Assembly: GCF_016592435.1 (NCBI RefSeq)
Contig: NZ_AP014545.1
Location: 1,518,693-1,558,692 of the forward strand
Length of the DNA: 40,000 nt
From: Amphritea japonica ATCC BAA-1530
GTDB lineage: Bacteria > Pseudomonadota > Gammaproteobacteria > Pseudomonadales > Balneatricaceae
Reading direction: 5' to 3'
The translations under genes and the position numbers were made by a program. The notes beneath the pieces were generated by a model. The model was not told the origin of the DNA. It did not search any database and saw nothing but the letters and a program-made list of their open reading frames with translations. Shown piece after piece: positions 15,052 through 29,670 of the stretch. Numbering within the stretch: the first letter of the stretch is position 1; every line of letters starts with the position of its first letter.

Positions 15052-15054
15052 CAC

Positions 15055-15114: not shown

Positions 15115-15137
15115 ATTACCAGTTTCCGGAGTAATCA

Positions 15138-15593: not shown

Positions 15594-15608
15594 CGCAAGG
15601 AGAGTTAA

Positions 15609-16190: not shown

Positions 16191-16193
16191 GCA

Positions 16194-16274: not shown

Positions 16275-16305
16275 TTTTTTTACAGATCTAGCCAGGAATC
16301 ATGGA

Positions 16306-16677
16306 ATGAAGTTTATCTACGGGCTACTAGTAGCAACCCTCGTTATGTCACCCTTACTGGCTAGTGAAAGCGAAATCGAGACGAAGTACCATGCTTTCGG
16401 AATGGGTGTAACTAAATGTGTTGAAGTTAACGAAAACATCGAGAAAGAAGAATTTCAGTTCGTTTTAAAAGTATGGCTCACCGGGTACATGACAGCTGTT
16501 AATAGCATTTTAAATAAACACTCAATTGGTCTTAGTGGCCCCGATATTGGAAGGTCTATTGAAGCCATTCGTTCCTATTGCACTGTGCCGTCAAACGAAC
16601 AGGGTTCTATAAGTGAGGCAGCTGAAACATATTGGCGTGGGCGTATTAATGAAATGACGACAACAGTAGCCCAATAA
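16306..16677 (+). CDS. cassette 4: secreted/periplasmic protein of unknown function
   Basis: Start moved to ATG 16306; the track start at 16126 would translate attC 3. Signal peptide: MKFIYGLLVATLVMSPLLASE. Confidence 0.6.
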   Translation: MKFIYGLLVATLVMSPLLASESEIETKYHAFGMGVTKCVEVNENIEKEEFQFVLKVWLTGYMTAVNSILNKHSIGLSGPDIGRSIEAIRSYCTVPSNEQGSISEAAETYWRGRINEMTTTVAQ

Positions 16678-16694
16678 TTAGATGGTCCACAAAA

Positions 16695-16754
16695 ACATAA
16701 CAAGGCGCATAAGCAAGGACGCAGCAAGCTACGCCGCTTTGCTTGGCGTTAAGC
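16695..16754 (+). repeat. attC 4 (60 bp)
   Basis: R'' is ACATAAC and R' is GTTAAGC. Same core family as attC 1, 2 and 8. Confidence 0.8.
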
Positions 16755-16772
16755 CAATGAATAGAGAGATCG

Positions 16773-17708
16773 ATGAGTATTAAGCCAGATTGGAATGAAA
16801 TAGCTCTAAGGATTGGAGATGATCAAAGTCATGATGACTTGCATTCTGAATGGTCTAAAGAATGTAAGAAATGGTTAGAATCTATCGCCAGTGAATTTGG
16901 CAGCGATTATAGAATTGAAGAATCGCTAAACTTTTCGATTATGTCGAATGAAAGCGATCGGTATATTCATGTTTTTTCAGGCTTCTTAGAAAGAACATTA
17001 AAACGAATTTTAAGCACTCTTGAAGGAATTGCTTCCGACGAAGGATTTGGGAAGCATGTAGCATTAATCTTTCAAGATAGTGACCAATATTATGAATACG
17101 TTGGCATGTTCTTTCCTGATGAAGGGGAGTTCGGTCTTAGCTCAGGAATGTACATAAATGAAGGTTATGGTCATTTTGTATTTCCATCTCAAGATATAGA
17201 TTATGCTGAGCCAATTGCCGTTCATGAACTCACCCATGCTTGCTTGGTTCATCTGCCGATACCATTATGGCTAAATGAAGGCATGGCTGTTCTGATGGAA
17301 GATGTACTTGCAGGTAATCGCCTTTTTCTAGATAAAGAAATGGTTGAACGTCACCAAAGGTATTGGAATGAAGATACTATCCAAGATTTTTGGTCAGGCG
17401 AAAGCTTTATGGCAATTGATGAAGGTCAGGAGCTTAGCTATAACTTGGCTCACATTCTTGCGCGTAATATCTCCCAGGATTTTTCGGCTTTTGCAAAGTT
17501 CAGTAATCATGCAAATTACGAAGATGCAGGTGAGTCGGCAGCACAGGAATTCCTAGGCTTATCACTTACACAAATTGTTGGTTCGTTTCTCGGCGAGGGA
17601 AACTGGCAACCAGATGGTAGGCTTAACAAGGCGCTGCAACCGACTGCCAAAAGTGTCACTCGTTTTGCAAAAAGCCGCAAAATAAGCGCCACTTTTGTCA
17701 GCGGCTGA
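16773..17708 (+). CDS. cassette 5: putative zinc metallopeptidase (HExxH, peptidase-MA-like)
   Basis: 311 aa. It has AVHELTHACLVH followed by PLWLNEGMAVLMED, the gluzincin-type third-ligand motif. The last ~29 codons lie inside attC 5. Confidence 0.6.
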   Translation: MSIKPDWNEIALRIGDDQSHDDLHSEWSKECKKWLESIASEFGSDYRIEESLNFSIMSNESDRYIHVFSGFLERTLKRILSTLEGIASDEGFGKHVALIFQDSDQYYEYVGMFFPDEGEFGLSSGMYINEGYGHFVFPSQDIDYAEPIAVHELTHACLVHLPIPLWLNEGMAVLMEDVLAGNRLFLDKEMVERHQRYWNEDTIQDFWSGESFMAIDEGQELSYNLAHILARNISQDFSAFAKFSNHANYEDAGESAAQEFLGLSLTQIVGSFLGEGNWQPDGRLNKALQPTAKSVTRFAKSRKISATFVSG

Positions 17709-17722
17709 GCGCGGCGTTAGCT
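17621..17722 (+). repeat. attC 5 (102 bp)
   Basis: R'' is GCTTAAC and R' is GTTAGCT. Long arms: AAGGCGCTGCAACCGACTGCCAAAAGTG / CACTTTTGTCAGCGGCTGAGCGCGGC. Confidence 0.75.
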
Positions 17723-17735
17723 GTCTTAATAGAGT

Positions 17736-18044
17736 ATGAGCATGGATCAAGTTGTATCACCTAAAAAAGCATTAGCGCTATATCTAATCCCAGTTCTTTT
17801 TCTGGTGTATTTCGTGGCAGGCGCTTTCACTGGTGAAATAAGTGTTCCCGGTCGCAGCGACATTCTTAATATCCGTGGTGTGTCTGCTTGGTTAGCTTGT
17901 AGCTTTCCTGCATTATGGCTGGCAAGTGAAGTCATACGTCACGAGCAGCGGATTAAAATAGGCCCAAAATCACGCAAGATATTGGCCCCAATAATAATGG
18001 TTTTTGGTGTGAGTATATTTTTCTATGCAATATATAAAATGTAA
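17736..18044 (+). CDS. cassette 6: small membrane protein (3 predicted TM)
   Basis: 102 aa with hydrophobic helices LALYLIPVLFLVYFVAGAF, AWLACSFPALWLA and LAPIIMVFGVSIFFYAI. Confidence 0.55.
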   Translation: MSMDQVVSPKKALALYLIPVLFLVYFVAGAFTGEISVPGRSDILNIRGVSAWLACSFPALWLASEVIRHEQRIKIGPKSRKILAPIIMVFGVSIFFYAIYKM

Positions 18045-18056
18045 TCGTGCCAAAAC

Positions 18057-18125
18057 AGCTAACAAGGCAAGCCAGCGGACTCAAAAAAGCTTCGCTTTTT
18101 CGGTCCGCTGCTTTTGGCGTTATAC
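18057..18125 (+). repeat. attC 6 (69 bp)
   Basis: R'' is AGCTAAC and R' is GTTATAC. Arms: AAGGCAAGCCAGCGGAC / GTCCGCTGCTTTTGGC. Confidence 0.75.
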
Positions 18126-18138
18126 CTCAAGGACGGAT

Positions 18139-18627
18139 ATGAAAGTAATTCTGACTATTGTGTTAATTTTAACTTCAGGCGTTGTAAGTGCTGAGAGTTC
18201 TTTGCCTGATCTGGAGAAAACGATTAAGGCTGCAAACGGAGGTAACGTAATTGCTATGCACTATCTCTGTTATCAGTATCGGTATGGAGATGATTTTGAA
18301 GCAGACTATAAGAAAGCCGTTAAGTGGTGTGAAAAAACTGCTAAATCGGGAGATAGTGATGGCCAAACTCTCTATGCAGAGCTTCTTCAGTATGGTTTTG
18401 GCACGCCTGTAAATCTGGAAGGGTCAGTGAAGTGGTATCTCAAAGCAGCTGAACAGGACCATGTACATGCGTTATATATGCTTTTCTTTGCATATGCAGA
18501 AGGAATTTTTGTACAACAAGATTTTAATAAAGCGCACTATGTTCTAAAGAGGTCAGCTGATTTAGGTTATGAGAAAGCAAAAGAGCTTTTAAAAGAAATC
18601 GAAGACAGGACGAAAGCTAAGGTATAA
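18139..18627 (+). CDS. cassette 7: secreted Sel1-repeat (TPR-like) protein
   Basis: Start moved to ATG 18139; the track start at 18025 translates attC 6. Signal peptide MKVILTIVLILTSGVVSA, then repeated Sel1-like units (AMHYLCYQYRYG, AVKWCEKTAKSGDSDGQ, KWYLKAAEQDHVHA). Confidence 0.7.
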   Translation: MKVILTIVLILTSGVVSAESSLPDLEKTIKAANGGNVIAMHYLCYQYRYGDDFEADYKKAVKWCEKTAKSGDSDGQTLYAELLQYGFGTPVNLEGSVKWYLKAAEQDHVHALYMLFFAYAEGIFVQQDFNKAHYVLKRSADLGYEKAKELLKEIEDRTKAKV

Positions 18628-18677
18628 CAAGTAAAGTCAGCCGACCGCTAAAGCGTCGGCTGCTTTAAGCGTTATGC
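18622..18677 (+). repeat. attC 7 (56 bp)
   Basis: R'' is GTATAAC (contains the stop) and R' is GTTATGC. Arms: AAGTAAAGTCAGCCGAC / GTCGGCTGCTTTAAGC. Confidence 0.8.
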
Positions 18678-18689
18678 ATCATCAAAGGA

Positions 18690-19151
18690 ATGAATATGAA
18701 CGAAATATATAAAACACCTGCTAGTGATCTTTCTATCCAATCTGAAGGCACTATTCCCAAAAGACCCACCTCTGTAACCGCTTTAGGTTGGCTTTTTATA
18801 CTAGCAGGTATTCTCTACTTACCTTTTCTGTATAAATCCGGCCTGTTAACCGTTCAGGAAACAGCTCGAGGCAGCAAAATCTCAGTTAACCTTATTTGGA
18901 TCTTGCTTATTTGGAACGGTTATATGCTTCTTGTTGGTGGTAACATTTCCAGGTACTTTGCTGCGTTTTTTGGATTATTCGCTTTTGTACTACCAGCCAT
19001 TGCTGTCATATACATTTGCTTCATCAGTAACGCTAAAACTTTCTTCGCTAAAAAATCATGCCCGAGCTGTGGTCATAATAAATTTCGTGTTGGCAATCCT
19101 ATTGTTACTTCAATTCGTTGCCGAAAATGCAGCACAAAAGTTAAGGTCTAA
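18690..19151 (+). CDS. cassette 8: membrane protein with C-terminal zinc ribbon
   Basis: 153 aa with 3-4 TM helices, then CPSCGHNKF...CRKCSTKV. AAAGGA lies upstream. Confidence 0.55.
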   Translation: MNMNEIYKTPASDLSIQSEGTIPKRPTSVTALGWLFILAGILYLPFLYKSGLLTVQETARGSKISVNLIWILLIWNGYMLLVGGNISRYFAAFFGLFAFVLPAIAVIYICFISNAKTFFAKKSCPSCGHNKFRVGNPIVTSIRCRKCSTKVKV

Positions 19152-19152
19152 T

Positions 19153-19212
19153 GCATAACAAGGCGCACAAGCAAGGACACAGCAAGCTGCGCCGCTTTGC
19201 TTGGCGTTAGAT
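19153..19212 (+). repeat. attC 8 (60 bp)
   Basis: R'' is GCATAAC and R' is GTTAGAT. Same core family as attC 1, 2 and 4. Confidence 0.8.
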
Positions 19213-19228
19213 TGCAAAGGAACGCAAT

Positions 19229-19734
19229 ATGAGTAAGCCTAGCTTGAAGCCTTCTATAGAGCACTATCGAGGTATATTAAGGATGATTATCGGTGCAGGG
19301 TTGATAGGCCTTTTTTTTACTTTAGGGATTACGTAGACATTCCGTATTTGAGTGATTATTTGAACCAAAGAAGTGACTCTTTAAATCATAGGAATGGTTT
19401 AGCAAACGTTCTTGAAATTACATTAGATTTAATTATGGGTATTATCTGTGCATTAGGTTTGGATAGGGTATTAGTCCCTTTCCTCAAACCTCTATCCAGA
19501 AAGCAGAAAATCGAAATAATAACGGATGGAATTAGATACCTCTATACCAATGCGCATGCAGATATTTTATTTTCTGATATTGAGAAAGTTATAACTCGCT
19601 TAGAATCTGATGGTTCCATCGAAATATTCACAACTTCAGGCCAATTCATAGAGATAAAGCATTATACAAATATGGATCACTTGATTGAACATTTGGAACA
19701 AGGGCGGGTTCAAATTGAACAATCTAACAAGTAG
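19229..19734 (+). pseudogene. cassette 9: probably disrupted gene (35-aa TM ORF 19229-19336 plus out-of-frame 128-aa ORF 19348-19734)
   Basis: The SD-led ATG at 19229 gives MSKPSLKPSIEHYRGILRMIIGAGLIGLFFTLGIT and then TAG. The larger ORF starts 12 nt later in another frame, with TTG and no SD. Confidence 0.35.
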
Positions 19735-19779
19735 CTGTAGTGGATCGTCGCTACGCTCCTACTAAGCTAAGCGTTATAC
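19722..19779 (+). repeat. attC 9 (58 bp)
   Basis: R'' is ATCTAAC and R' is GTTATAC. The core AAGTAGCTGTAGTGGATCGTCGCT is nearly identical to the first attC of array 2. Confidence 0.8.
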
Positions 19780-19792
19780 CTAAGGGAAAGTT

Positions 19793-20305
19793 ATGCTCAA
19801 GGATATATATTTTCTTAATAGTCGAGGGCTCTCAGAAGAGCTTAAATCAGGGACGTTCTCAGAGGTTAGAGCTTTAAAACATTTGATTGTTACAGCAGTG
19901 ATAGGGCGGTTTTCATTTGAGTTTCCTGTTGAAATTGCTTTTTCTGAGTCTGAAATAAGTATGTGGAAGAGCTTGGCCTCACTATTAATACTAATAGTTT
20001 CAGGTGTTATTACTTACTATGGATTATGGCTAGCTTATCAGGCTAACGAAAAAGGAGACGGTAAAGATTTTTTCTTGAGATTAGCATCTTTAAGTTTACC
20101 AATTGGTCTCAAGCTTTTTATGTACTTTTTAGTTGCTGGGGTAGCTTTGGGTTTTACATCAACATTATTGATAAGCGGTTTAGGTTCGGTTGGTGCGGTA
20201 ATTACTGTGGTTGCAATGTTTGTAGCAACACTAGCGTTCTACTCACTTTTTTATCTTCAGCTAAGAAATCATATAGCTATAATATCCGGCTATGAAAAAG
20301 TATAA
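19793..20305 (+). CDS. cassette 10: polytopic membrane protein
   Basis: 170 aa with GGGAAAG upstream. Four hydrophobic helices follow a ~45-aa soluble N-terminus. Confidence 0.55.
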   Translation: MLKDIYFLNSRGLSEELKSGTFSEVRALKHLIVTAVIGRFSFEFPVEIAFSESEISMWKSLASLLILIVSGVITYYGLWLAYQANEKGDGKDFFLRLASLSLPIGLKLFMYFLVAGVALGFTSTLLISGLGSVGAVITVVAMFVATLAFYSLFYLQLRNHIAIISGYEKV

Positions 20306-20373
20306 CAAGTTGCAGTAGTTCGCCGCCTACGGCTGCGGACTCGCTATGCTCGCCGCAGTGCAAGGCGATATTT
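20300..20373 (+). repeat. attC 10 with mutated R' core (GATAT instead of GTTAT)
   Basis: R'' is GTATAAC. The site aligns along its length with attC 11, but ends AAGGCGATAT where attC 11 has AAGGCGTTAT. Confidence 0.65.
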
Positions 20374-20396
20374 CTCTCCAAAACTAGGTGCCAAGG

Positions 20397-20855
20397 ATGA
20401 AGTGTGACGTATGTGGTCGTTCAATCACTATAAACTGGGGTAACGAATTCGCCGTAGTTTGTGAAGAGCATACCAACCATATCACTAAACTCACCGATCT
20501 AAAGCGAAGCGCTGCTAAGGTGTGGACAGAGGGTACAGTCAAGTTTATCCCGGTTGAAGTTGATACTTCTGGTTCAAACTTGTTATCCGTATGGTGGGCT
20601 ATTACGTGGCGCTTCATGCTTATGTTAGTCGTTATTGGCGGTTTCCTCGGATTAATATTTTATCATTCTATGAACACGCTTATTGAACAGGAGATGCTTA
20701 CTACTGGCGTAGCAGAAACTATCGGAGTGATATTTTACCTAGTGATAGCAACTGCATTTATCTTTGTTGCTTTAGATAGAGTTATCGGGAAAAAAATAGG
20801 CAATGTCCGGTTGGTAATAGTTAGTGCTAAGGAATCTGACATTGAAGAAAAATAA
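20397..20855 (+). CDS. cassette 11: zinc-ribbon-like N-terminus plus C-terminal TM helices (paralogue of cassette 2)
   Basis: ATG 20397 follows AAGG; the track GTG at 20388 is less likely. MKCDVCGRSITINWGNEFAVVCEEH aligns with the cassette 2 N-terminus. Confidence 0.6.
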   Translation: MKCDVCGRSITINWGNEFAVVCEEHTNHITKLTDLKRSAAKVWTEGTVKFIPVEVDTSGSNLLSVWWAITWRFMLMLVVIGGFLGLIFYHSMNTLIEQEMLTTGVAETIGVIFYLVIATAFIFVALDRVIGKKIGNVRLVIVSAKESDIEEK

Positions 20856-20924
20856 CAAGTTACAGCGGTTCGCAGCCTGTGGCTGTCGGACTCGTTGCAC
20901 TCGCCGCTGTGTAAGGCGTTATAC
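20850..20924 (+). repeat. attC 11 (75 bp)
   Basis: R'' is AAATAAC and R' is GTTATAC. Same family as attC 10. Confidence 0.75.
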
Positions 20925-21013
20925 CTAAGGAAAAGTTATGCTTAGGGATGTGTTTTTTCTGAATAGTTTAGGCTAATCAGAAGAGCTTTAATCAGCGGAT
21001 TTCTCAGAGATTA
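20925..21013 (+). pseudogene. decayed remnant of a cassette-10-like cassette (array 1 end)
   Basis: CTAAGGAAAAGTTATGCTTAGGGATGTGTTTTTTCTGAATAG... parallels 19780-19870. It hits TAA after 12 codons, and the homology stops near 21013. Confidence 0.5.
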
Positions 21014-21046
21014 GAAAATCGTTGCTCAACTAGCTTGGAAAAATGA

Positions 21047-21071
21047 AGAGCGCTTAGACGCTCTTTTTTTT
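21047..21071 (+). terminator. rho-independent terminator closing array 1
   Basis: AGAGCG-CTTAGA-CGCTCT followed by a run of eight T. Confidence 0.6.
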
Positions 21072-21344
21072 CGCTCAAATATGAGAGTTTATTAGACTCT
21101 GTTGGTGCAATTTACAAGTAATGAGTAAGGTCTGGATGAAGTTGTTTTCTAATGCTTAACGACTATTCTTATTTCAAACTGTTGTTTTAATTTGCTCAGG
21201 CAAAGCACGGCATCGAGCAATATGCGTAACAGCTAAAGTGTTTTTGGCGAAGGGGTAGTGCTTATAGCGAGCTCTTGGATAAGAGTTTTATCGCTAATCG
21301 GACGAATCCCCTAAGTTTATCAACGACGATAGAGGGAGTTTGAT

Positions 21345-22895
21345 ATGTCTACGCTGAACAAACTACTGGGGTTCGCCAAACGATTACCTGGCGTTGCTAA
21401 GCTTGCTAATCGAATCGCATCTAATAAGTTAGCGTCAGCCACAACACCCCGGCCCCATAGCCATAGTTTGTGGTCGCCCCTCGATAAAGTTGATGCCTCG
21501 CCCAGTGAATATCTGACCTGGCATACGGTCACCGATAAAAACTACTTCGATCGTCATCTTGCCCCGGCTGATGATCGTTTTATGAATGCCTTACCATCAA
21601 ATGAGGGGACGACTGAATTCCCTTTCGGTGAGGTTACCGCCTTGTTTGAGCGAAAAGGTGGAATGAAGGAAGACCGTTCATCGGTCTTTTTTATGTTTGT
21701 TGCTCAATGGTTCACCGACGGTTTTTTCCGTTCCAGTCATATCGATTTCAGACAGACCACCTCCAACCATAACATCGACCTTGCCCAGATATATGGTTCT
21801 AACGAAGCGGTAGCACTGATGCTCCGCTCAGGGGAGGGCGGCAAGTTGCGTAGCCAGATGATAGGGGGTGAAGAGTATCCGGATTCTCTTGGCGAACTGG
21901 ATGAAAACGGTGTCTGGCAGGTAAAAGATCGTTATAAAAACCTACCTTACATCGCTGATAAAGAGTGGATGGAGTCTATTTTTGGTGGGTTAACTGACTC
22001 GCAGAAAGACAAGCTATTCGCGACAGGGCTGGAGAGGGGGAACTCAATTGTTGGGCATATGGTGATGAGTACCTTGTTTCTAAGGGAGCACAACGGTATC
22101 TGTGATCAGCTGGCTAGCCGAAATCCCGGTTGGGACGATGATCGGTTATTTCACACCGCGCGCATCATCAATACTGTCATCCTGATGAAACTCATTATCG
22201 AAGATTACGTTAACCATATCGCCGGTCTGGATGTTCTGGTGATGGATAATTCATTCGTTGAGAAACAGCAGTGGTACCGTACTCCCTGGATAGCGGCAGA
22301 ATTCAATCTGCTTTATCGCTGGCACGGCTTAGTACCTGATGCGCTAAAGGTTGCGGGCAGAGATGAGAGCCTCGTTAAAAACTTTGATCTGCTGATCAGG
22401 GAAGGCCTGAGCAGTCTGTTAGAAGCGGCAACATTGCAGGTGGCCGGTAAAATATCACTGGACAATGTCCCCGGATTTTTAATGCCCGCAGAGCAGGCGA
22501 TGATCAACAAAGGCCGGGACTGGCGGTTACGGTCTTTTAATGATTATCGCGTTCAGTTTGGTCTGTCCCGATTAGACTCGTTCGATCAGGTGACTGACGA
22601 TACTAATCTCAACGCAAGCCTTAAAAGACTCTATAGCGACATTGATAATCTGGAACTCACCGTAGGGTTGTTTGCAGAAGATGGAGGCAGCACGCTGACA
22701 GGCGAGCTACAGACCGCCATGGTGGCCTACGATGCGCTGACACAGATATATACGAATCCTTTACTGGCAAAGGAAAACTTCTGCGATAAGCACTTCACCG
22801 CTTACGGTATGGAGCGAATCGATGCCACGAAGTCGTTTCAGGATCTGGCTGATCGCAATACCAATCGACTGGTGAAGGTTAGTGTTAAGAGGTAG
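21345..22895 (+). CDS. haem peroxidase / cyclooxygenase-like fatty-acid oxygenase family protein
   Basis: 516 aa with AGAGGGAG upstream. FVAQWFTDGFF aligns with COX FAQHFTHQFF. NLLYRWHGLVPD aligns with COX LYHWHPLLPD (Tyr and proximal His). RSFNDYRVQFGL aligns with COX SFNEYRKRFGL. Confidence 0.75.
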   Translation: MSTLNKLLGFAKRLPGVAKLANRIASNKLASATTPRPHSHSLWSPLDKVDASPSEYLTWHTVTDKNYFDRHLAPADDRFMNALPSNEGTTEFPFGEVTALFERKGGMKEDRSSVFFMFVAQWFTDGFFRSSHIDFRQTTSNHNIDLAQIYGSNEAVALMLRSGEGGKLRSQMIGGEEYPDSLGELDENGVWQVKDRYKNLPYIADKEWMESIFGGLTDSQKDKLFATGLERGNSIVGHMVMSTLFLREHNGICDQLASRNPGWDDDRLFHTARIINTVILMKLIIEDYVNHIAGLDVLVMDNSFVEKQQWYRTPWIAAEFNLLYRWHGLVPDALKVAGRDESLVKNFDLLIREGLSSLLEAATLQVAGKISLDNVPGFLMPAEQAMINKGRDWRLRSFNDYRVQFGLSRLDSFDQVTDDTNLNASLKRLYSDIDNLELTVGLFAEDGGSTLTGELQTAMVAYDALTQIYTNPLLAKENFCDKHFTAYGMERIDATKSFQDLADRNTNRLVKVSVKR

Positions 22896-22910
22896 AAGTA
22901 AAACCCTGGG

Positions 22911-22961
22911 GCGTTGTTCGAACGTCACAAAAAAACGTGACTTGCTCGTCGCTCGAAAAAG
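22911..22961 (+). repeat. family-2 repeat, Y module (unit A)
   Basis: GCGTTGTTCGAACGTCAC-AAAAAAAC-GTGACTTGCTCGTCGCTCGAAAAAG. It is nearly identical to 26236-26283. Confidence 0.7.
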
Positions 22962-22995
22962 CCCTCAAAAACCAACTTTAACACCTAAAAATATC

Positions 22996-23080
22996 ACCAC
23001 AGAGAACACCGAGAGCACGGAGAAGGACCGTTAACTAGCCTCTATCCGCTTTTCTCTGTGCTCTCTGTGTCCTCGGTGGT
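22996..23080. repeat. 85-bp imperfect hairpin (29-nt arms)
   Basis: ACCACAGAGAACACCGAGAGCACGGAGAA pairs with TTCTCTGTGCTCTCTGTGTCCTCGGTGGT. By hand count 25 of 29 positions are complementary, with a 27-nt loop. Confidence 0.6.
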
Positions 23081-23147
23081 AAAAGCTCTGAAGTAGCGGC
23101 TGGATGATCTGTTATCCTATGCGCTTCCCTCAAATAACAGCCAATCT

Positions 23148-24152
23148 ATGATGAGACGATCTTTTTTACCCCCCTGGTGGGCAAAGAACCCACATGTGCA
23201 GACGATTTTACCTGTGCTCACTAAGGTTGAATCCCCGGCACTTTCCCGCCAACGCCTGGAATTAGGTGATGGTGATTTTATCGATCTTGATTGGTTAGGT
23301 GACCCCCATAACGCCGGTAGCATTGTTGTTATTATGCATGGGCTGGAAGGTAGCTCTGATTCCCACTATATACGACGCTTACTGCAAGATTGTAATCGCC
23401 ATGGTTTATGCGCGGTTGTGCATCACCATCGGGGCTGTTCGGGTGAGCCGAACCGTTTAGCCCGCAGTTATCATAGTGGCGATACGCAAGATATTAGTGA
23501 CACCTTGGCGTACCTTAAAGAGCATTTCCCTCAAGCAAAACTGTGCGCTGTGGGTTATAGCTTAGGGGGGAATGTGTTGACTAAATATCTGGGCGAGATG
23601 CAGAGTGATAGCACCATAGACCGTGCGGTTGTTGTCTCGGCCCCACTGCAGTTATCAGCCTGTGCCAAGCGATTAGAAAAGGGGTTTTCGACTCTTTACC
23701 AATGGCATCTGATTAAGCAGCTTCGAGATAAACTCACCGATAAATTTAATCATCGAACCATTGTCGATCAAGCATCGGTGACGCCGAAGCAAGTCAGTAC
23801 ACTGAAAACGTTTTATCAATTTGATCACCGGGTGACTGCGCCACTGCATGGCTTCGAGGGTGTTGATGATTACTATGCTAAAGCCAGTGGATTTAGTTAT
23901 TTGGCGAAGATTGACCGACCAACGTTAGTCATACATGCCGCTGATGATCCGTTCATGAATGCAGACGTAATCCCATCAGCTAACCAGTGCTCCGCAGATG
24001 TAACCTATGAACTGCATCAACAGGGTGGTCATGTCGGCTTTATTGACGGTGGTTCTCCACTAAAACCACGCTACTATTTAGAACAACGTATTATTCATTT
24101 TCTGACGATAAATAAAGCTGTAGCTAGTGATGAAGCAATCGCTAGTGGTTAG
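23148..24152 (+). CDS. alpha/beta-fold hydrolase, YheT/ABHD1-3-like
   Basis: 334 aa. N-terminal FLPPWWAKNPHVQTILP, then HGLEGSS, the nucleophile elbow GYSLGGN, and late D (AADDPF) and H (GGHVGF). Confidence 0.8.
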   Translation: MMRRSFLPPWWAKNPHVQTILPVLTKVESPALSRQRLELGDGDFIDLDWLGDPHNAGSIVVIMHGLEGSSDSHYIRRLLQDCNRHGLCAVVHHHRGCSGEPNRLARSYHSGDTQDISDTLAYLKEHFPQAKLCAVGYSLGGNVLTKYLGEMQSDSTIDRAVVVSAPLQLSACAKRLEKGFSTLYQWHLIKQLRDKLTDKFNHRTIVDQASVTPKQVSTLKTFYQFDHRVTAPLHGFEGVDDYYAKASGFSYLAKIDRPTLVIHAADDPFMNADVIPSANQCSADVTYELHQQGGHVGFIDGGSPLKPRYYLEQRIIHFLTINKAVASDEAIASG

Positions 24153-24219
24153 ACGTAGCTTCGCTACTTGCCAGAACGTCGCTACGCGACTCGCTAGGAA
24201 AAGATTAAAAGCCGTAAAC
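24141..24219 (+). repeat. family-2 repeat, X module (unit B)
   Basis: GCTAGTGGTTAGAC-[GTAGC TTC GCTAC]-TTGCCAGAAC-[GTCGC TAC GCGAC]-TCGCTAGGAAAAGATTAAAAGCCGTA. It overlaps the hydrolase stop codon. Confidence 0.7.
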
Positions 24220-24240
24220 TGTAAATAAAGGCAGGACTCA

Positions 24241-24648
24241 ATGAAAGAGATCACACGAATTAATCATGTAGGGCTTCGGGTTAGAGATTTAGATACCGCT
24301 AGAAAATTCTACGAGCAACTCGGATTTAAATTCATTGCAGGTCCGGTTGGTCCAGAGCCTGCGGCTATCGTTGAGCACCCATCAGGTATCAATATCAATT
24401 TCATTCTCAACGCATCTGATGATGCTCCGGAAGATAATATTCTAATGAAACAGGATATAAAATATCCTGGCTATACACATATCGCGTTGGAGATAACTGA
24501 CGCAGAGGTCGTGTCTAAGAAAATTGAAGAGCTGGGAATAACAATCACTGAACGGGTAGAGATTAATGGTGCAAAATTCTTCTTTATCAGAGACCCGGAC
24601 GATAACGTCATAGAGCTTCATCAGGCCTCAAATAAGAGCAGTAGCTAG
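24241..24648 (+). CDS. VOC/glyoxalase-family protein
   Basis: 135 aa. INHVGLRVRDLDTARKFYEQLGF ... HIALEI ... FFIRDPDDNVIELH is the typical glyoxalase I fold signature. Confidence 0.8.
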   Translation: MKEITRINHVGLRVRDLDTARKFYEQLGFKFIAGPVGPEPAAIVEHPSGININFILNASDDAPEDNILMKQDIKYPGYTHIALEITDAEVVSKKIEELGITITERVEINGAKFFFIRDPDDNVIELHQASNKSSS

Positions 24649-24738
24649 TGGTTAGACGTGGCTTCGCCACTTGCTAGAACGTCGCAATGCGACTGCTAGG
24701 GAAAGACTAAAAGCCGTAGCGCGTTGTTCGATCGTCAC
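24644..24738 (+). repeat. family-2 repeat, X module plus partial Y (unit C)
   Basis: GCTAGTGGTTAGAC-[GTGGC TTC GCCAC]-TTGCTAGAAC-[GTCGC AAT GCGAC]-TGCTAGGGAAAGACTAAAAGCCGTAGCGCGTTGTTCGATCGTCAC. Confidence 0.7.
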
Positions 24739-24762
24739 ATTCACATGGGATATTAAGTCAGA

Positions 24763-25446
24763 ATGATCAAGCACAACGTTCTCAATAACCTGTTCCAAGG
24801 AAAGGTAAAGCAAAGCTTTGGGCTAGAGACAGGGATGGAGAAATCGCCTGTGGAAGGGGATATTTACCTATCTATTGAAGGCCTGGAAGGTGACGCCTGT
24901 GCGGATAAAAATCACCATGGTGGCTTAGAGCGTGCCCTTCATCAGTATCCATCTGAACACTACAAATATTGGTGCAAGCGATATGGGACAGGGTTTCAAT
25001 GGCATGCGCCGGGCATGGGAGAGAATCTTAGCTCTACGGGTATGACAGAGCAGAACGTTTGCATCGGCGATCGTTTTAGCTGGGGTGATGCGGTTATTGA
25101 GATAAGCCAGCCTCGCTCTCCCTGCTATAAACTCAATACACGGTGGGGTATAGAAGACTTTTCTATCCATATGCAGGAGATCAGTCGATGCGGGTGGTTG
25201 TATCGAGTGATCGAGCCCGGAATAGTCAATGTTGATAAGCCGCTTCGGCTGATTGAGCGGGTCCCTGACGCGCTAACCGTTCGTCAGGTATGTGATATCT
25301 ACTTCGGCAACCCACTCGATCAAGAGGGCTTGTGTAAACTAAAACAGCAAACGAGATTGTCTGATAGCTGGATGCAAAAAGTTGTCCAGCGTATAGACAC
25401 AGGTGAAGTTGAAAACTGGAATTTTCGATTATTGGGCCACGCTTAA
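24763..25446 (+). CDS. MOSC-domain protein (YiiM-like)
   Basis: 227 aa. GDACADKNHHGGLERALHQYPSEHYKYW and ISQPRSPCYKLN (conserved Cys) are typical of the MOSC/YiiM family. Confidence 0.8.
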   Translation: MIKHNVLNNLFQGKVKQSFGLETGMEKSPVEGDIYLSIEGLEGDACADKNHHGGLERALHQYPSEHYKYWCKRYGTGFQWHAPGMGENLSSTGMTEQNVCIGDRFSWGDAVIEISQPRSPCYKLNTRWGIEDFSIHMQEISRCGWLYRVIEPGIVNVDKPLRLIERVPDALTVRQVCDIYFGNPLDQEGLCKLKQQTRLSDSWMQKVVQRIDTGEVENWNFRLLGHA

Positions 25447-25487
25447 TCGTTCAACATGAGTTGCGTGCGAAGATTTGGAGCAGAAGC

Positions 25488-25590
25488 CAGTGGTTAGACG
25501 TGGCTACGCCACTTGCTAGAACGTCGCTACGTGACTGCTAGGGAAAGATTAAAAGCCGTAGCTCGTTGTTCGAATGTCGCTAAGCGACAT
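25488..25590 (+). repeat. family-2 repeat, X module plus variant Y (unit D)
   Basis: CAGTGGTTAGAC-[GTGGC TAC GCCAC]-TTGCTAGAAC-[GTCGC TAC GTGAC]-TGCTAGGGAAAGATTAAAAGCCGTAGCTCGTTGTTCGA-[ATGTCGC TAA GCGACAT]. Confidence 0.7.
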
Positions 25591-25599
25591 GATAGGCAT

Positions 25600-26118
25600 T
25601 TAGGTCGGTGCTTTGTTATCTGCGCTTGATTTTTCGGCTAATAAATCCAAATAACCCTTATCCAGGCCTTTTCTTGAAAGGTAGTTAGTACCGCCCTTAT
25701 GGATGACTATAAAACCTTTCTCAGTGGTCTTTAATTCATCAATATCGTTCCAGAGGATACTTTGCTGGTGGTGAGCGCTGTCGCTATAGATACCCTGATC
25801 ATCAATCCGAATATTGACCCGGCTACCGGCCCTGCGACTAAGCATTTGACGGGTTACCCACCAACCGCGTTTATAGCGAATAGATAGCAGTTCAACAGCG
25901 CAGAGGGCGAGTAGAAACCATGCAATATAGGGGTCAGACTCTTGGGCAAAAAACACACCGGCGAGAATGACCAGTATTATCACCTGACGGTATGTTTTGA
26001 GGCTGAGAGTAGTATTCGCAGATTCGTCAAAGCACTCAATGAAGTATTCACGATTGAGGATATAGTAGCTGCTCTGATCTGTACTGGTGCTGCTGTTAGG
26101 GTGGGCGGTGTCTGTCAT
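25600..26118 (-). CDS. YcxB-like membrane protein
   Basis: 172 aa. Two TM helices (VIILVILAGVFFA, IAWFLLALCAVELL), then a soluble domain with ILWNDIDELKTTEKGFIVIH. It is the only minus-strand gene in the island. Confidence 0.5.
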   Translation of the reverse strand: MTDTAHPNSSTSTDQSSYYILNREYFIECFDESANTTLSLKTYRQVIILVILAGVFFAQESDPYIAWFLLALCAVELLSIRYKRGWWVTRQMLSRRAGSRVNIRIDDQGIYSDSAHHQQSILWNDIDELKTTEKGFIVIHKGGTNYLSRKGLDKGYLDLLAEKSSADNKAPT

Positions 26119-26214
26119 ACTCTGGCCTGGCGATGTAAGGACAATGTTGTAGGAACGCTAGTGTAGCAAATCTGGCAAATGAAGCTTGATTAGTTAAAGG
26201 GCTCTAATCGATTT

Positions 26215-26283
26215 AGTCTTTAAAAGCCGTAGCTCATTGTTCGAACGTCACAAAAAGCGTGACTTGCTCGTTGTTCGAAAAAG
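26215..26283 (+). repeat. family-2 repeat, X tail plus full Y module (unit E)
   Basis: AGTCTTTAAAAGCCGTAGCTCATTGTTCGAACGTCAC-AAAAAGC-GTGACTTGCTCGTTGTTCGAAAAAG. It directly abuts attI platform 2. Confidence 0.7.
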
Positions 26284-26333
26284 TAATTGTCAAAAGTATC
26301 AATTCTCCAGTACTGTTATAGTTAGTGCATAGC

Positions 26334-26349
26334 TTGTATGTATAAACAG
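26334..26349. promoter_or_regulatory. relic LexA-box-like sequence
   Basis: TTGTATGTATAAACAG has one mismatch to CTGT-N8-ACAG. It is positionally equivalent to the box at 14526-14541, with a 3-nt insertion immediately upstream. Confidence 0.35.
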
Positions 26350-26530
26350 TTTATTTTGCATATAGCAGTAGTTATGCTCGTTTTATCGTTAGACAAAGGC
26401 TCGTTTTGCTGCTTATAAGTTTTGCAAAACTGAAGAAATACAAAGGGATAGGTATAAAACGCTGGTGAGATACTGCGCCAGGTAAAGAATGCATATGCGC
26501 ATTCTCGTTTTTGTCTTAAAGGAGATCACG

Positions 26531-26626
26531 ATGTTCAGTAATTCCCTTCTAAGATCAGATAGTTATCACCCCTTTTGTGACTTTAGCTCGGCATGCATAT
26601 GCGCCGGCCTAGTATTAAAATGTTAA
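26531..26626 (+). CDS. attI leader small ORF, copy 2 (31 aa), stop codon inside the GTTAA core
   Basis: Same SD (AAAGGAGA) and spacing as copy 1. Translation: MFSNSLLRSDSYHPFCDFSSACICAGLVLKC. 20 of 31 residues are identical to copy 1, with no gaps. Confidence 0.4.
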   Translation: MFSNSLLRSDSYHPFCDFSSACICAGLVLKC

Positions 26627-26646
26627 ATGTCTAAAATGGATCTCAG

Positions 26647-26877
26647 ATGAAATCACTACTTATAATCATAATTGGATTATTTGCATCATGGCATTTCACG
26701 GACTTATCCTCTGATAGCAGCCTTTATAGTGTTCTCGCTCCATTAGGTGTATTCATTTTTCTAATCTCATTAGGTATTTGGCTCGTTTTGAAAGCAGGCT
26801 TTGGAAGAAGAGATGATGGAGGGGTTGGTTATCATGGTAATGATGGAGGTTTTGGTGGAGATGGTAGCTGTGACTAA
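26647..26877 (+). CDS. array 2 cassette 1: small membrane protein with Gly/Asp-rich tail
   Basis: 76 aa with two TM helices, then RRDDGGVGYHGNDGGFGGDGSCD. Confidence 0.45.
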   Translation: MKSLLIIIIGLFASWHFTDLSSDSSLYSVLAPLGVFIFLISLGIWLVLKAGFGRRDDGGVGYHGNDGGFGGDGSCD

Positions 26878-26879
26878 AC

Positions 26880-26941
26880 ATTTAACAAGTAGCTGTAGTG
26901 GATCGTCGCTGCGCTCCTCACCACTAAGCTAGGCGTTAAGC
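26880..26941 (+). repeat. attC, array 2 site 1 (62 bp)
   Basis: R'' is ATTTAAC and R' is GTTAAGC. The core AAGTAGCTGTAGTGGATCGTCGCTGCGCTCC is nearly identical to attC 9 of array 1. Confidence 0.8.
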
Positions 26942-26949
26942 GTAACTAG

Positions 26950-27246
26950 ATGGAAATCGTAGAAATTATAATTTCATTGGTATGGCTTTCGATTATGTTG
27001 ATTGTAGGCCTGCCGAGCTTAATCAAAGGCATGTACTTCACGATCAAAGCCGTAGGCAATCACAACGTGAACATTACCAAAGAAAACCGATTCACTCGTT
27101 TCAATACTTTTAATGCTCTGTTTGTCCCAGGAGCATTAAACGAAGAAGGCATCAAATACCGAGCTAAGGCCGGTAAGAACCTACTAGTATTTTTCGGTTT
27201 GTTTCTTATAACCGCGGCCGGAGGGTTCTTTAATGGCACTCTGTAG
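26950..27246 (+). CDS. array 2 cassette 2: small membrane protein
   Basis: 98 aa with an N-terminal TM (IIISLVWLSIMLIVGLP) and a C-terminal TM (LLVFFGLFLITAAGGFF). Confidence 0.5.
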   Translation: MEIVEIIISLVWLSIMLIVGLPSLIKGMYFTIKAVGNHNVNITKENRFTRFNTFNALFVPGALNEEGIKYRAKAGKNLLVFFGLFLITAAGGFFNGTL

Positions 27247-27251
27247 CAGCC

Positions 27252-27312
27252 GCTTAACAAGTGCAGGCATTGGACATCCACTGCGTGGCCGCCCATGCTG
27301 CAAGCGTTATAT
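27252..27312 (+). repeat. attC, array 2 site 2 (61 bp)
   Basis: R'' is GCTTAAC and R' is GTTATAT. Arms: AAGTGCAGGCATTGGAC / GCCCATGCTGCAAGC. Confidence 0.75.
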
Positions 27313-27336
27313 TTTGCACAAAGTTAAGGAGTAACA

Positions 27337-28473
27337 ATGGGCGAAGAAGACCATGACTTCGGTGGGTTAACTGTAGATACCTCCATTTTTGATAATCATG
27401 GAATTAGGCTGGAATCAGGTCTATTGAGAAAACTTGATCAGTTCAAACCTACAGATGTTGAACTTGCTATTTCAGATATTGTTTTAAATGAAGTTCGCAA
27501 CCATTTAAAGTCAAAAGTTTCTGAAATAAAAAATAAACTTGAGAAGAGCATCAAGGATACCGAAACCCACCTTTGCTTTGATTCATCCAAAATCAACGAT
27601 GGAAAAAGCATTTTAATTCCAGAAAAGTCCCCTGAAGAAATCACAGATGAACGTCTAAAGGACTTTCAAGAAAGCAATGGGTTCACAACCGTTGAGTCTT
27701 CTAAATACCTCAATGTTGATGAACTGATAAATAGCTATTTTTCTCACAAAGCCCCATTTAGCGAGTCTGGTCAAAAGAAAAATGAGTTTCCTGATGCTAT
27801 AGCCCTTTTATCTCTTGAAAAATGGGCGGAAGAAAATGAAATAAAAGTTTTGGCCGTATCAACAGATAAGGATTGGGTGAAGTTTTGTGAGGTATCAGAT
27901 TGGTTATTTATCAAAGGAGACTTAGCTGAGGCCATTTCTACTTTTCAACCTAAAACTGCTCCATATCACTTCTGCGATGTACTTGCCAAAGCTATATCAA
28001 GTGGCGATGATCAAGCTGTCATTGCAGATATTGAGCAAGCGGCATGCGACTATACAAATGATTTATACCTTTATGCAGAAGCAACCTCTGGTTTCTTCTG
28101 GGAAGCTACGGATTCAGTGGAAGTCAACTATGAGAGTTTTGAGTTTGTAGAAGATGGTAACAATCAACCAGTTTTACGCTTAGTCGAAGTAGAAGAAGAA
28201 AGCATTGTCATTGAAGCAAAAGTAATTATTAAGGCTGAGGCAAGCTGTAGCTTCTCTCTTTCAGTGCATGATTCCATTGATAAAGACTACGTGTTTCTAG
28301 ATAGTTCATCAGCTTCAACTGATTTTGAGTACAAAACCGATGTACTAATGACCTTGGCGGGTGAGTTTGACCAAGGAATGGATGCTGTTGAGCTAGTTGG
28401 AATTGAATTTCTATCTAGTCCTAACAGCGTTGAGTTCGGGGATCTACAGCCAGATTTTTGGGATGATGAGTAA
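27337..28473 (+). CDS. array 2 cassette 3: PIN-like (DUF4935-type) predicted nuclease with acidic C-terminal domain
   Basis: 378 aa with GGAG upstream. N-terminal LTVDTSIFDNHGIRLESGLL, and later NEFPDAIALLSLEKWA and VLAVSTDKDW, resemble PIN-like DUF4935 proteins by my recollection. This is the largest cassette ORF. Confidence 0.5.
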   Translation: MGEEDHDFGGLTVDTSIFDNHGIRLESGLLRKLDQFKPTDVELAISDIVLNEVRNHLKSKVSEIKNKLEKSIKDTETHLCFDSSKINDGKSILIPEKSPEEITDERLKDFQESNGFTTVESSKYLNVDELINSYFSHKAPFSESGQKKNEFPDAIALLSLEKWAEENEIKVLAVSTDKDWVKFCEVSDWLFIKGDLAEAISTFQPKTAPYHFCDVLAKAISSGDDQAVIADIEQAACDYTNDLYLYAEATSGFFWEATDSVEVNYESFEFVEDGNNQPVLRLVEVEEESIVIEAKVIIKAEASCSFSLSVHDSIDKDYVFLDSSSASTDFEYKTDVLMTLAGEFDQGMDAVELVGIEFLSSPNSVEFGDLQPDFWDDE

Positions 28474-28478
28474 CCAAA

Positions 28479-28534
28479 ATATAACAAGAAAAAGCAGCGG
28501 ACTCGTTCCTCGCTCGCTGTTTTGGGCGTTAAAA
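28479..28534 (+). repeat. attC, array 2 site 3 (56 bp)
   Basis: R'' is ATATAAC and R' is GTTAAAA. Arms: AAGAAAAAGCAGCGGAC / CGCTCGCTGTTTTGGGC. Confidence 0.75.
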
Positions 28535-28549
28535 GTAACGGGAGAGTAC

Positions 28550-28942
28550 ATGTATATCGATAAATTCAAAATATATACCCTTGTTGTCCTTGTAGTATTC
28601 CTCACTGCTTGCGCTTCAGGTTCATCGATTGTCACTGGTAAAGTCAGAGCACCAATAGACTTTAATCAAGTTAAACTTTACCTAGACGCTCCTAAAAATT
28701 ACGAATCAGTAGGTATTGTTAAAGCATCTAGTGATGCAGGTTGGACAGAGCAGCGCAGCCAAGATTATGCTATTCAAGAGCTAAAAAAGCAGGCAGCAAA
28801 ATTGGGTGCTAATGGTGTTTTACTCTCTACTACCGGAGAGAATGCTTCGGCTATTGTTTGGACTTACTCAAATGGAGTCACCTACGTTATACCTGTCTCT
28901 GAACAAACAGTTACCGGTAGGGCTATTTATGTCAGTGAGTAA
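28550..28942 (+). CDS. array 2 cassette 4: lipoprotein of unknown function
   Basis: Start moved to ATG 28550 after GGGAGAG; the track start at 28397 runs through the previous gene and attC. Lipobox: MYIDKFKIYTLVVLVVFLTAC. Confidence 0.65.
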   Translation: MYIDKFKIYTLVVLVVFLTACASGSSIVTGKVRAPIDFNQVKLYLDAPKNYESVGIVKASSDAGWTEQRSQDYAIQELKKQAAKLGANGVLLSTTGENASAIVWTYSNGVTYVIPVSEQTVTGRAIYVSE

Positions 28943-28945
28943 TTG

Positions 28946-29035
28946 TTCTAACAAAGAAAAAGAAGAGAAAAAAGGGCAAATTTATTCGTTGTCCCCTCTC
29001 TCTTCACAACCCACAGAACCAAAGCTTTTTCTAGC
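28946..29035 (+). repeat. terminal, degenerate attC-like sequence (R'' present, no recognisable R')
   Basis: It starts TTCTAAC-AAAG like the other attC sites and has complementary arms GAAGAGAAAAAAGGG / CCCCTCTCTCTTC. No GCGTTA-type end is present; it runs into family-2 unit F. Confidence 0.35.
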
Positions 29036-29093
29036 AAGCGACGAAGTCGCGTCTAACCACTAGCTAGCCGCGAAGCGGCGGTCTAGCTGCTGA
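29030..29093 (-). repeat. family-2 repeat, X-like module in inverted orientation (unit F)
   Basis: The reverse complement reads GCTAGAC-[CGCCGC TTC GCGGC]-TAGCTAGTGGTTAGAC-[GCGAC TTC GTCGC]-TTGCTAGAA. Confidence 0.65.
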
Positions 29094-29103
29094 CCTTAAA
29101 AAA

Positions 29104-29117
29104 TTGACTGCCATCAA
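29104..29117 (+). promoter_or_regulatory. FNR/Anr box upstream of ubiT
   Basis: TTGACTGCCATCAA has one mismatch to TTGAT-N4-ATCAA. Exactly 22 nt separate it from a TACTAT -10 hexamer at 29140-29145, which is class II geometry. Confidence 0.6.
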
Positions 29118-29169
29118 AGGCTAAAAGCGCATTTTCCTCTACTATCAGGCATCGATTAAGGAGTCTCCC

Positions 29170-29670
29170 ATGACCTCGTTCACGCTGCCTGACTTGGCGC
29201 CATCCCGGCTGCTGCAATCTCTACCGATACCGAGTTTCTCTAAATTTATTCAGTTTACAGAGCCGAAGCTGCCGTTTGCTTTTAGGAAAAAAATGGCGGA
29301 GCAGCTGTTAAATTATCTGTTCAAAGAACAGCTTCAGGATGATGAGTTTTATTTTCTCGAAGGGCAGCAGTTAGGTTTGGAGGTCAGGGATTTAGGCATA
29401 CAGGTGGCGTTTACCTGCGAGTTCGAAAAGCTCGTGGTGCTGCCAGCCCAACAACCGGATGCCTGGATTCGAGGCGATTCAGCCGACTTCATCAAAATGG
29501 CGTCTCAGGACGTTGACCCCGACACGTTATTCTTTCAACGTAAGCTGGTTATCGAGGGTAATACAGAACTCGGTTTAGCTATTAAGAATCTAATGGATAG
29601 CGTGGACTGGAGTGAAATGCCGGCGGTGTTCCAGCGTAGTATTCAGTTAGCCCAACGTTCAACTACTTAG
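29170..29670 (+). CDS. ubiT: SCP2-domain ubiquinone biosynthesis accessory factor UbiT (YhbT-like)
   Basis: 166 aa. SADFIKMASQDVDPDTLFFQRKLVIEGNTELGLAIKNLMDS is the SCP2/YhbT signature. It lies adjacent and divergent to ubiU-ubiV. Confidence 0.75.
   Translation: MTSFTLPDLAPSRLLQSLPIPSFSKFIQFTEPKLPFAFRKKMAEQLLNYLFKEQLQDDEFYFLEGQQLGLEVRDLGIQVAFTCEFEKLVVLPAQQPDAWIRGDSADFIKMASQDVDPDTLFFQRKLVIEGNTELGLAIKNLMDSVDWSEMPAVFQRSIQLAQRSTT

Follow-up and report, generated by a model that had tools for sequence, protein, structure and literature searches.

Integron attC arrays without an integrase gene (intI) are a described category, the attC clusters that lack an integron integrase (CALINs), defined by two or more attC sites with no intI within 4 kb (Cury et al. 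2016, PMC4889954). Such arrays may arise when one of several integrons loses its integrase, and their cassettes may be excised in trans; attI, which has no part in the definition, could not be assessed in the CALIN survey because it is unknown for most integrons (PMC4889954). Analysed here is a 40,000-nt stretch of the chromosome of Amphritea japonica ATCC BAA-1530 (contig NZ_AP014545.1, positions 1,518,693–1,558,692 of the forward strand), referred to as the window, whose own coordinates are used throughout. It contains two copies of an attI/leader region, here called platforms, about 11.8 kb apart, each heading a cassette array. Platform 1 adjoins intI, and platform 2 belongs to the integrase-less copies that we refer to as orphans. 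CALINs are as common as complete integrons but are as a rule regarded as passive fragments or reservoirs of cassettes, because the attI site of nearly every chromosomal integron is unknown. With three attC sites, an intI 11.8 kb off and no intI pseudogene, the array behind platform 2 (array 2) falls within the CALIN definition. It is like the surveyed CALINs in being an attC array without intI, and differs from them in its complete, conserved attI/leader head and in the presence of several such copies per chromosome (PMC4889954). Platform 2 is probably an orphan attI/leader module at the head of a CALIN, with complete insertion site and leader kept, that is served in trans by the single IntI.

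Among other known systems, platform 1 resembles the sedentary integrons of Gammaproteobacteria, such as the Vibrio cholerae superintegron, in its divergent intI, the LexA box over the promoter region, the G|TT attI crossover, the homogeneous species-type attC array and the fixed context. Unlike in Vibrio-type integrons, additional intI-less attI platforms occur in one genome; to our knowledge, neither a terminator-like hairpin in the leader nor a long attI-spanning small open reading frame (ORF) has been described for Vibrio. Some class 1 integrons in which intI1 is truncated or deleted keep attI1 and use IntI1 in trans. These share with platform 2 an attI and an array without a cis integrase, but are recent accidents on mobile elements, whereas orphans of the A. 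japonica type are old, conserved, chromosomal and multi-copy. CALINs of Xanthomonas lie at a few conserved loci away from ilvD-intI, in genomes that have or had one intI; unlike at the Amphritea orphans, no conserved attI/leader module is reported at the heads of those arrays (10.1101/2025.06.18.660453). A preliminary description of the window, which knew of no integron with two functional attI platforms and one integrase, needs correcting in so far as integrase-less arrays as such are already on record. Full-text searches of the literature returned no conserved multi-copy attI-headed integrase-less arrays and no Amphritea integrons; one of them was swamped by unrelated words, and the result does not establish absence.

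Two platforms and a single integrase

Platform 1 (14497–14816, plus strand) comprises the intI-proximal regulatory region, the leader and attI, and ends at the crossover GTT. Adjoining it, as previously noted, is an intact intI (13537–14496, minus strand), whose 319-residue product (WP_019621529.1, Amphritea japonica) contains Pfam domains PF13495 and PF00589 and matches the integron integrase family NCBIfam TIGR02249 over its full length (410.9 bits, cut-off 265). The setting is the fixed chromosomal context pqq, peptidase S9, yjdM and intI. Platform 2 (26316–26624, plus strand; identified by BLASTN, repeat search and ungapped comparison) is a regulatory/leader/attI module without integrase. 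The hairpin repeat and YcxB-like gene described to its left correspond to REP_A, a repetitive extragenic palindromic (REP)-like element of repeat families D6 and D15 immediately beside the platform (26220–26283, plus strand), and to a gene of the YcxB family (BBB25940.1, 25600–26118, minus strand). In the window, tblastn with IntI matches one gene only and there is no second intI; within 20900–29200, around platform 2, neither remnant nor pseudogene was detected (best E = 3.3). The adjacent integrase of a complete integron is present at platform 1 and absent at platform 2.

Ungapped comparison of 14527–14817 with 26335–26625 gives 227 identities in 291 positions (78.0%) without a gap, exactly the hand count of the preliminary description. 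The best of 2000 shuffles reached 102/291, and no alternative offset in the window exceeded 45% identity in the same ungapped comparison. The similarity is also significant by BLASTN (78.6% over 313 nt, E = 7e-71), and a repeat search on the window returned the pair as a gap-free match of 265 nt at 78%. Both identical blocks that had been noticed are present and could be placed: one of 43 nt (14677–14719 and 26485–26527) and one of 16 nt (TAGTATTAAAATGTTA; 14802–14817 and 26610–26625).

The LexA-box position does lie within the aligned region, with the qualification that the box is perfect in platform 1 (CTGTATGTATATACAG, 14526–14541) and degenerate in platform 2 (TTGTATGTATAAACAG, 26334–26349), where it reads TTGT...ACAG with one further change; CTGT-N8-ACAG over PintI is thus found at platform 1 and not at platform 2. 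Overlapping the platform 1 box on the minus strand, that of intI, is a promoter-like TGGACA-N17-TATACA (−35 at 14554–14559), which by eye we take as the presumptive intI promoter. The corresponding −35-like element is lost from platform 2 (ATAGCA, against TGTCCA in platform 1). Expression of intI is probably SOS-induced through the box at 14526–14541.

Two copies 11.8 kb apart in one window could in principle reflect a recent segmental duplication, or an assembly artefact joining two loci, and short-read contigs indeed break at the shared block. An independent assembly, the Logan contigs of run SRR891940, was used to check the junctions. Contig L001 equals window positions 9409–14705 and contig L032 equals 22064–26510, both with zero mismatches, and both terminate within the 43-nt shared block, where a k-mer (de Bruijn) assembler must break at a repeat. 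The left junctions, intI to platform 1 and YcxB–REP to platform 2, are therefore independently attested, and the IntI and YcxB genes lie on one complete, closed contig of 3.83 Mb, which answers the concern about misassembly raised earlier. The copies, moreover, differ by 22%, and platform 2 is 77% identical to platform 1 but 82–83% identical to the intI-linked platforms of A. pacifica, A. atlantica and the Amphritea chromosome OZ223298, in which the layout of hydrolase, REP-like element and orphan platform recurs (locus L017). Duplication or artefact is accordingly extremely improbable, and the earlier argument from divergence alongside conserved islands is borne out.

Recurrence, conservation and cassette turnover of orphan platforms

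A. pacifica and a metagenome have homologues of IntI that are 88–96% identical and share the pqq/peptidase S9/yjdM/intI context. Both window copies can be aligned with the platforms of these homologues, and all five sequences diverge right after ...AAAATGTT. A second Amphritea integron type and Marinobacterium zhoushanense (IntI 69–72% identical) have the same platform architecture, in which the LexA box, GTCCAG, the hairpin with its T-run, the Shine-Dalgarno sequence with the small ORF, and the ATTAAAATGTT core are kept. Common to both window platforms is the attI core GCGCCGGCNTAGTATTAAAATG|TTA. Homology stops at ...ATTAAAATGTT| in 27 platform copies, with unrelated sequence beyond; these copies end ...AAAATGTT| and continue into differing cassettes, as would be expected of insertion at a G|TT attI crossover.

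A census of species-representative genomes, made with a degenerate pattern over the invariant attI-proximal positions, returned 24 platform sites in 16 genomes of Amphritea, Marinobacterium, Oceanisphaera, Zobellella and Oceanimonas and an Oceanospirillales metagenome-assembled genome (MAG). Six of these sites adjoin intI and 18 do not, a ratio that is approximate, as some copies, such as the linked one of Z. aerophila, escape the pattern. Nearly all copies can be aligned over the whole 290-nt module; L008 departs from the others to the left of about −215, and the multi-genus alignment was made without L018. Five copies are present on OZ223298.1 (at ~298, 365, 614, 925 and 1509 kb, that at 925 kb with intI), two each in A. 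pacifica, M. zhoushanense, O. sediminis and the Amphritea MAG ERR2094169_bin.10, and in Z. aerophila one linked and one orphan platform lie ~480 kb apart. The coexistence of orphan and linked platforms thus recurs in related genomes, where the preliminary description had suggested looking for it; the 12-kb spacing that it emphasized is incidental, orphans lying hundreds of kilobases from intI elsewhere. Outside the window, all 42 matches to the attC model are downstream of a platform and on the same strand, and 14 of the 18 orphans have at least one attC.

A scan of JGI metagenomes yielded further orphans and no close relative of platform 2; two matches, L049 and L050, look like chance occurrences inside a coding region and were discarded.

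The integrase-less copies have arisen repeatedly, through several independent losses of intI. One of the two copies in ERR2094169_bin.10 (L014) is at the yjdM locus, from which intI has been cleanly deleted. In this uncultured Amphritea (NZ_CAKZLP010000066.1; L014:3900–4202) the platform directly follows the yjdM terminator, the intI ORF being gone from the ancestral locus, and a complete integron of another subtype is present elsewhere in the MAG (L023); no attC was detected within 3.8 kb downstream of the L014 platform. The orphan of the Amphritea sp. OB2 MAG (L009:6232–6500) keeps ~60–70 nt resembling the intI 5′ end, with the start codon lost, and by this trace represents a further independent loss. 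Transfer RNA or transfer-messenger RNA genes were considered as a general insertion target of orphans and rejected, with a single case, in A. balenae, beside tRNA-Met. No third A. japonica platform lies within 1 kb of the Memo/AMMECR1 locus, the site of one in A. pacifica, on the Logan contig covering it, and no orphan lies upstream of ubiT in the other Amphritea loci L036 and L038.

Platform 2 is 79–83% identical to the platforms of other Amphritea, whereas between those genomes intI and the flanking hydrolase are just 39–50% identical at four-fold degenerate sites. Orphans compared with one another are 72–92% identical along the module and ~25% identical just beyond attI, and the 16–25 nt beside the crossover are 92–97% conserved. 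Decay is differential. Linked copies retain the CTGT half-site of the LexA box and an invariant GTCCAG block, both lost in orphans; what the orphans keep are the attI, hairpin and Shine-Dalgarno/small-ORF parts, with 80–95% conservation of attI, hairpin and Shine-Dalgarno sequence. This pattern indicates that the orphan platform is under purifying selection. The proposal of a second integron in which the integrase was lost and selection maintained the attI and promoter region is well supported: no intI remnant persists, conservation far exceeds that of synonymous sites, the elements of use to intI only (the LexA half-site and the −35-like TGGACA) have decayed in orphans, and the arrangement recurs. 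The 43-nt block is identical in the two window copies because it is constrained everywhere and not through gene conversion; conversion from the linked copy, as a source of the conservation, is contradicted by the 22% divergence.

The first cassettes of related orphans are never shared and are unrelated from the exact crossover on. On two JGI metagenome contigs, L044 (Ga0193962_1053137) and L048 (Ga0193954_1025203), a ybhG-like gene is accompanied by the same platform, left-truncated and without intI; in L023 this locus is occupied by a complete integron. Up to GTT the two contigs share 97.4% identity over 627 nt, beyond it 24 of 88 positions match, and the first cassette of L044 ends in attC. 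A change of cassette at this orphan attI thus took place after intI had been lost; it would need an integrase that acts in trans or, as the less simple option, homologous exchange with the platform as one arm. At the A. pacifica orphan, the flanking protein, sought in order to compare first cassettes between the two sequenced strains, gave only a 99% representative on a 1-kb contig.

These observations bear on the possibility that platform 2 is an inert relic, that is, that the second integron lost intI and its platform and cassettes have since been fixed, non-recombining and slowly decaying. The degraded LexA box and −35-like element of platform 2 would agree with this, as would the small ORF broken in some orphans, the last ORF of array 2, which has no attC, and the shortness of that array. 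We consider a relic unlikely, given that the orphan elements are conserved far above neutral sites, that related orphans carry first cassettes unrelated from the exact crossover, and that turnover in the L044/L048 pair followed the loss of intI.

Service of platform 2 by the single IntI thus remains the reading that we prefer. Of the earlier suggestion that one IntI serves both platforms, the shared attI core, the break at the exact crossover in all copies and the turnover in one orphan pair speak indirectly in its favour; for A. japonica itself, action of IntI in trans at platform 2 is something that we infer. The attI/leader is here recognisable by sequence, is kept after repeated independent intI losses in up to four orphans per chromosome, and shows cassette turnover, so that the question of whether CALINs are active capture-and-expression sites served in trans becomes directly testable. 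It suggests a unit of integron function made up of one integrase and several platforms, and the 300-bp module, with its hairpin, small ORF and attI, is a compact object for recombination and expression assays.

Leader, small ORF and expression

Within the 43-nt identical block, a terminator scan identified a terminator-like hairpin (AGAATGC-ATATGC-GCATTCT followed by a T-run; 14678–14707, plus strand), with the same element in platform 2 (26486–26515, plus strand). The stems (14678–14697 and 26486–26505) are of 7 bp each and are followed by CGTTTTTGTC, which matches the pattern of a putative intrinsic terminator. Among Amphritea copies the stem is invariant and the loop variable, and the other genera retain a hairpin and T-run with different stem sequences.

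Directly after the hairpin is a small ORF with its own Shine-Dalgarno sequence, in the layout AAAGGAG-N7-ATG, the conservation of which was checked across copies for both start codon and ribosome site. Small ORF 1 (14723–14827, plus strand, 34 codons) runs through attI into the first cassette; small ORF 2 (26531–26626, plus strand, 31 codons) ends on a TAA formed by positions 3–5 of the GTTAAAT core. Any cassette starting TTAA or TTAG places the stop codon on positions 3–5 of GTTRRRY. In the passages of the literature that deal with ORF-11 and ORF-18 of attI1 in class 1 integrons, ORF-11 is described as enhancing translation of the first cassette (Hanau-Bercot et al. 2002, reviewed in PMC8876359). 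The small ORF has the features of the ORF-11 type, with a Shine-Dalgarno sequence and start codon upstream of attI, a frame that spans the crossover, a stop at GTTRRRY 3–5 and a peptide that is unimportant (PMC8876359). It differs in its length of 31–34 codons as against 11, in having no sequence similarity and in its position directly after a terminator-like hairpin, and the coupling assumed here is by analogy with ORF-11. Substitutions per site are 0.18, 0.11 and 0.13 at the three codon positions, without bias, as would be expected if it is translation that matters, and so the peptide is not what is conserved. Selection at the protein level was accordingly rejected for want of a third-position excess, and the peptide has no match in NCBIfam. 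In A. atlantica DSM 18887 (approximately L024:6469–7056), the small ORF is in frame with a lipoprotein ORF in the first cassette, forming a frame of 210 codons, an illustration of possible fusion between the attI small ORF and cassette genes.

Further to the left, an invariant 7-bp inverted repeat, GTTTTGC...GCAAAAC, occupies 14596–14624 and 26404–26432; its 14–15-nt spacer is hypervariable among copies, and the repeat could be an RNA hairpin or an operator. In a short helix of the form CUGGY/GCCRG, the G–U pairs suit the plus strand only. RNAalifold gave four trivial pairs on the alignment of all genera, which is too divergent, and within Amphritea a plausible three-hairpin leader with no compensatory double changes, a structure that is thus unproven. 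Searches of Rfam 15 gave no match in the whole window at the gathering threshold and only noise in 14480–14860 at E ≤ 5.

The 12-mer ATGCATATGCGC occurs twice in each platform (14681–14692 and 14785–14796; 26489–26500 and 26593–26604), once in the terminator-like hairpin and once in an attI-proximal palindrome, and in the other genera a related (A)ACGCGCATGC is present at both positions. These repeats may be protein-binding sites, perhaps for IntI.

Such features would also suit a 300-nt module kept mainly as an expression element (a promoter, a regulated leader and a coupling small ORF), with attI activity irrelevant at the orphans. The most conserved stretch is the 43-nt block of hairpin, T-run and Shine-Dalgarno sequence, the G–U pairs make the predicted helices plus-strand-specific, and the small-ORF layout matches that of ORF-11 (PMC8876359). 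Equally invariant, however, are the 16–25 nt by the crossover, whose only known role is in recombination; the small ORF is dispensable in some orphans, and the consensus scan found no promoter. Conservation for expression alone is for these reasons quite improbable, and selection on expression is compatible with service of platform 2 by IntI in trans rather than exclusive of it.

A mechanism can be outlined on this basis. The single IntI (13537–14496) would be induced, probably by the SOS response, through the LexA box at 14526–14541. Because IntI is diffusible and the attI core is shared, excised circular cassettes could be inserted at the first position of either array. Transcripts entering an array would cross the conserved leader with its terminator-like hairpin and then reach the Shine-Dalgarno sequence and the small ORF of 31–34 codons, which extends across the crossover and takes its stop from the incoming cassette. 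Translation of the small ORF would be coupled to that of the first cassette, as described for ORF-11 in class 1 integrons. A cassette promoter and its location, a role of the hairpin in termination or antitermination, and translation of the small ORF are presumed here from sequence features.

Several observations weigh against this picture, in addition to the approximate census ratio. No convincing plus-strand sigma-70 promoter emerged from a consensus scan of either platform, weak candidates being discernible by eye only; the best −10-like position reads CATAAT in some relatives and CTGAAG in platform 2, and any promoter farther upstream would be separated from the cassettes by the terminator-like hairpin. 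Of the seven Amphritea-type orphans, three (L017, L028 and L031) have a broken small ORF, and the Oceanisphaera group has none. Homologous recombination with the platform as an arm might, in principle, also account for the cassette differences between copies. Finally, a close relative of A. japonica (L034, UbiT 95% identical) has the same flanks, namely hydrolase, glyoxalase, MOSC, YcxB and REP_A on the left and terminator, REP_B and ubiT on the right, with no platform or array between them; the breakpoints are at the 3′ end of REP_A and at ~28944. The module is therefore dispensable and can be gained or lost as a block.

Arrays, REP-like elements and neighbouring genes

The attC sites were located with a covariance model, R1, built from 13 sites of the window, two home-made detectors having been dropped as too crude or too strict. 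All cassettes are bounded by attC sites in one orientation, on the plus strand, with eleven after platform 1 and three after platform 2. Array 2 (26625–28944) consists of three attC-ended cassettes (attC at 26881–26940, 27253–27311 and 28480–28533; 54–61 bits) and a terminal ORF without attC. Of the four cassettes with same-type attC sites described earlier, three are thus upheld by R1 sites and the fourth is the attC-less terminal ORF. A fourth attC past 28942 was sought and rejected, since 28945–29030 is core intergenic DNA shared with the array-less L034; in the scan of 20900–29300, R1 found no attC in 20924–26880 or beyond 28533. The ORFs of array 2, annotated by Pfam, are at 26647–26877, 26950–27246, 27337–28473 (PIN_12 domain) and 28550–28942 (lipoprotein-like), all on the plus strand. 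The cassette arrays of A. balenae and A. pacifica contain homologues of the 98-residue product of array 2. As had been observed, one attC of array 2 (26881–26940) is nearly identical to attC 9 of array 1 (19723–19778; 95% over 39 nt).

Array 1 (14817–20923, plus strand) has 11 cassettes, with attC sites at 15056–15113, 15535–15592, 16195–16273, 16696–16753, 17622–17721, 18058–18124, 18623–18676, 19154–19211, 19723–19778, 20301–20372 and 20851–20923. Ten of the 11 score 36–63 bits. The exception, attC 10 (20301–20372), scores 16 bits and has a mutated R′ (GCGATAT for GCGTTAT); cassettes 10 and 11 are probably fused and immobile. On folding, the bottom strand is more stable than the top in nine of the ten detected sites (for example, −47.7 against −39.6 kcal/mol), which fits bottom-strand recombination. 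Past the last attC, 20924–21015 is a truncated copy (81%) of the first ~90 nt of cassette 10 (19771–19870), followed near 21045–21070 by a terminator-like hairpin; this stretch marks the decayed end of the array.

The 5.4 kb between the arrays encodes a haem peroxidase family protein, an alpha/beta hydrolase, a glyoxalase, a MOSC protein and YcxB. Each of these genes is followed by clusters of REP-like hairpins and not by attC. The REP-like elements belong to two hairpin families, with cores GTTGTTCGAACGTCAC and GCTAGTGGTTAGACG, and are located at 22897–22961, 24133–24233, 24636–24741, 25478–25583, 26220–26283 and 29025–29095, and at position 15. In inverted orientation they bracket the platform 2 module, which is closed on the right by REP_B, an inverted REP-like pair (29025–29095, minus strand); such an inverted pair also closes the arrays of L029 and L031. 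Platform 2 and the Amphritea-type orphans L010, L016, L017, L028 and L031 share a junction at the former intI start, and in five of these six, L010 being the exception, a REP-like element is at a constant 384–394 nt from the attI end. L017, in OZ223298, directly follows a homologue (80% identical) of the window hydrolase. Recombination between REP copies could perhaps account for the gain or loss of the block, which is speculation. We regard it as possible, though doubtful, that the integrons of this clade (Amphritea, Marinobacterium, Zobellella, Oceanisphaera and Oceanimonas) are distributed systems, in which one intI serves several dispersed attI/leader modules with their own arrays, the Amphritea modules being relocatable units bounded by inverted REP-like elements and the leader acting as a conditional expression switch of a kind so far undescribed. 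If so, relocatable REP-bounded modules would constitute a second level of mobility above the cassette.

In the metagenome scaffold of L034, a single ORF of 2153 residues without a Pfam match stands between the REP-bounded flanks where A. japonica has platform 2 and array 2 (L034:3308–9769). Just past array 1, on this bacterial chromosome, 21345–22895 encodes a 516-residue member of the animal haem peroxidase family (PF03098, E = 1e-41).

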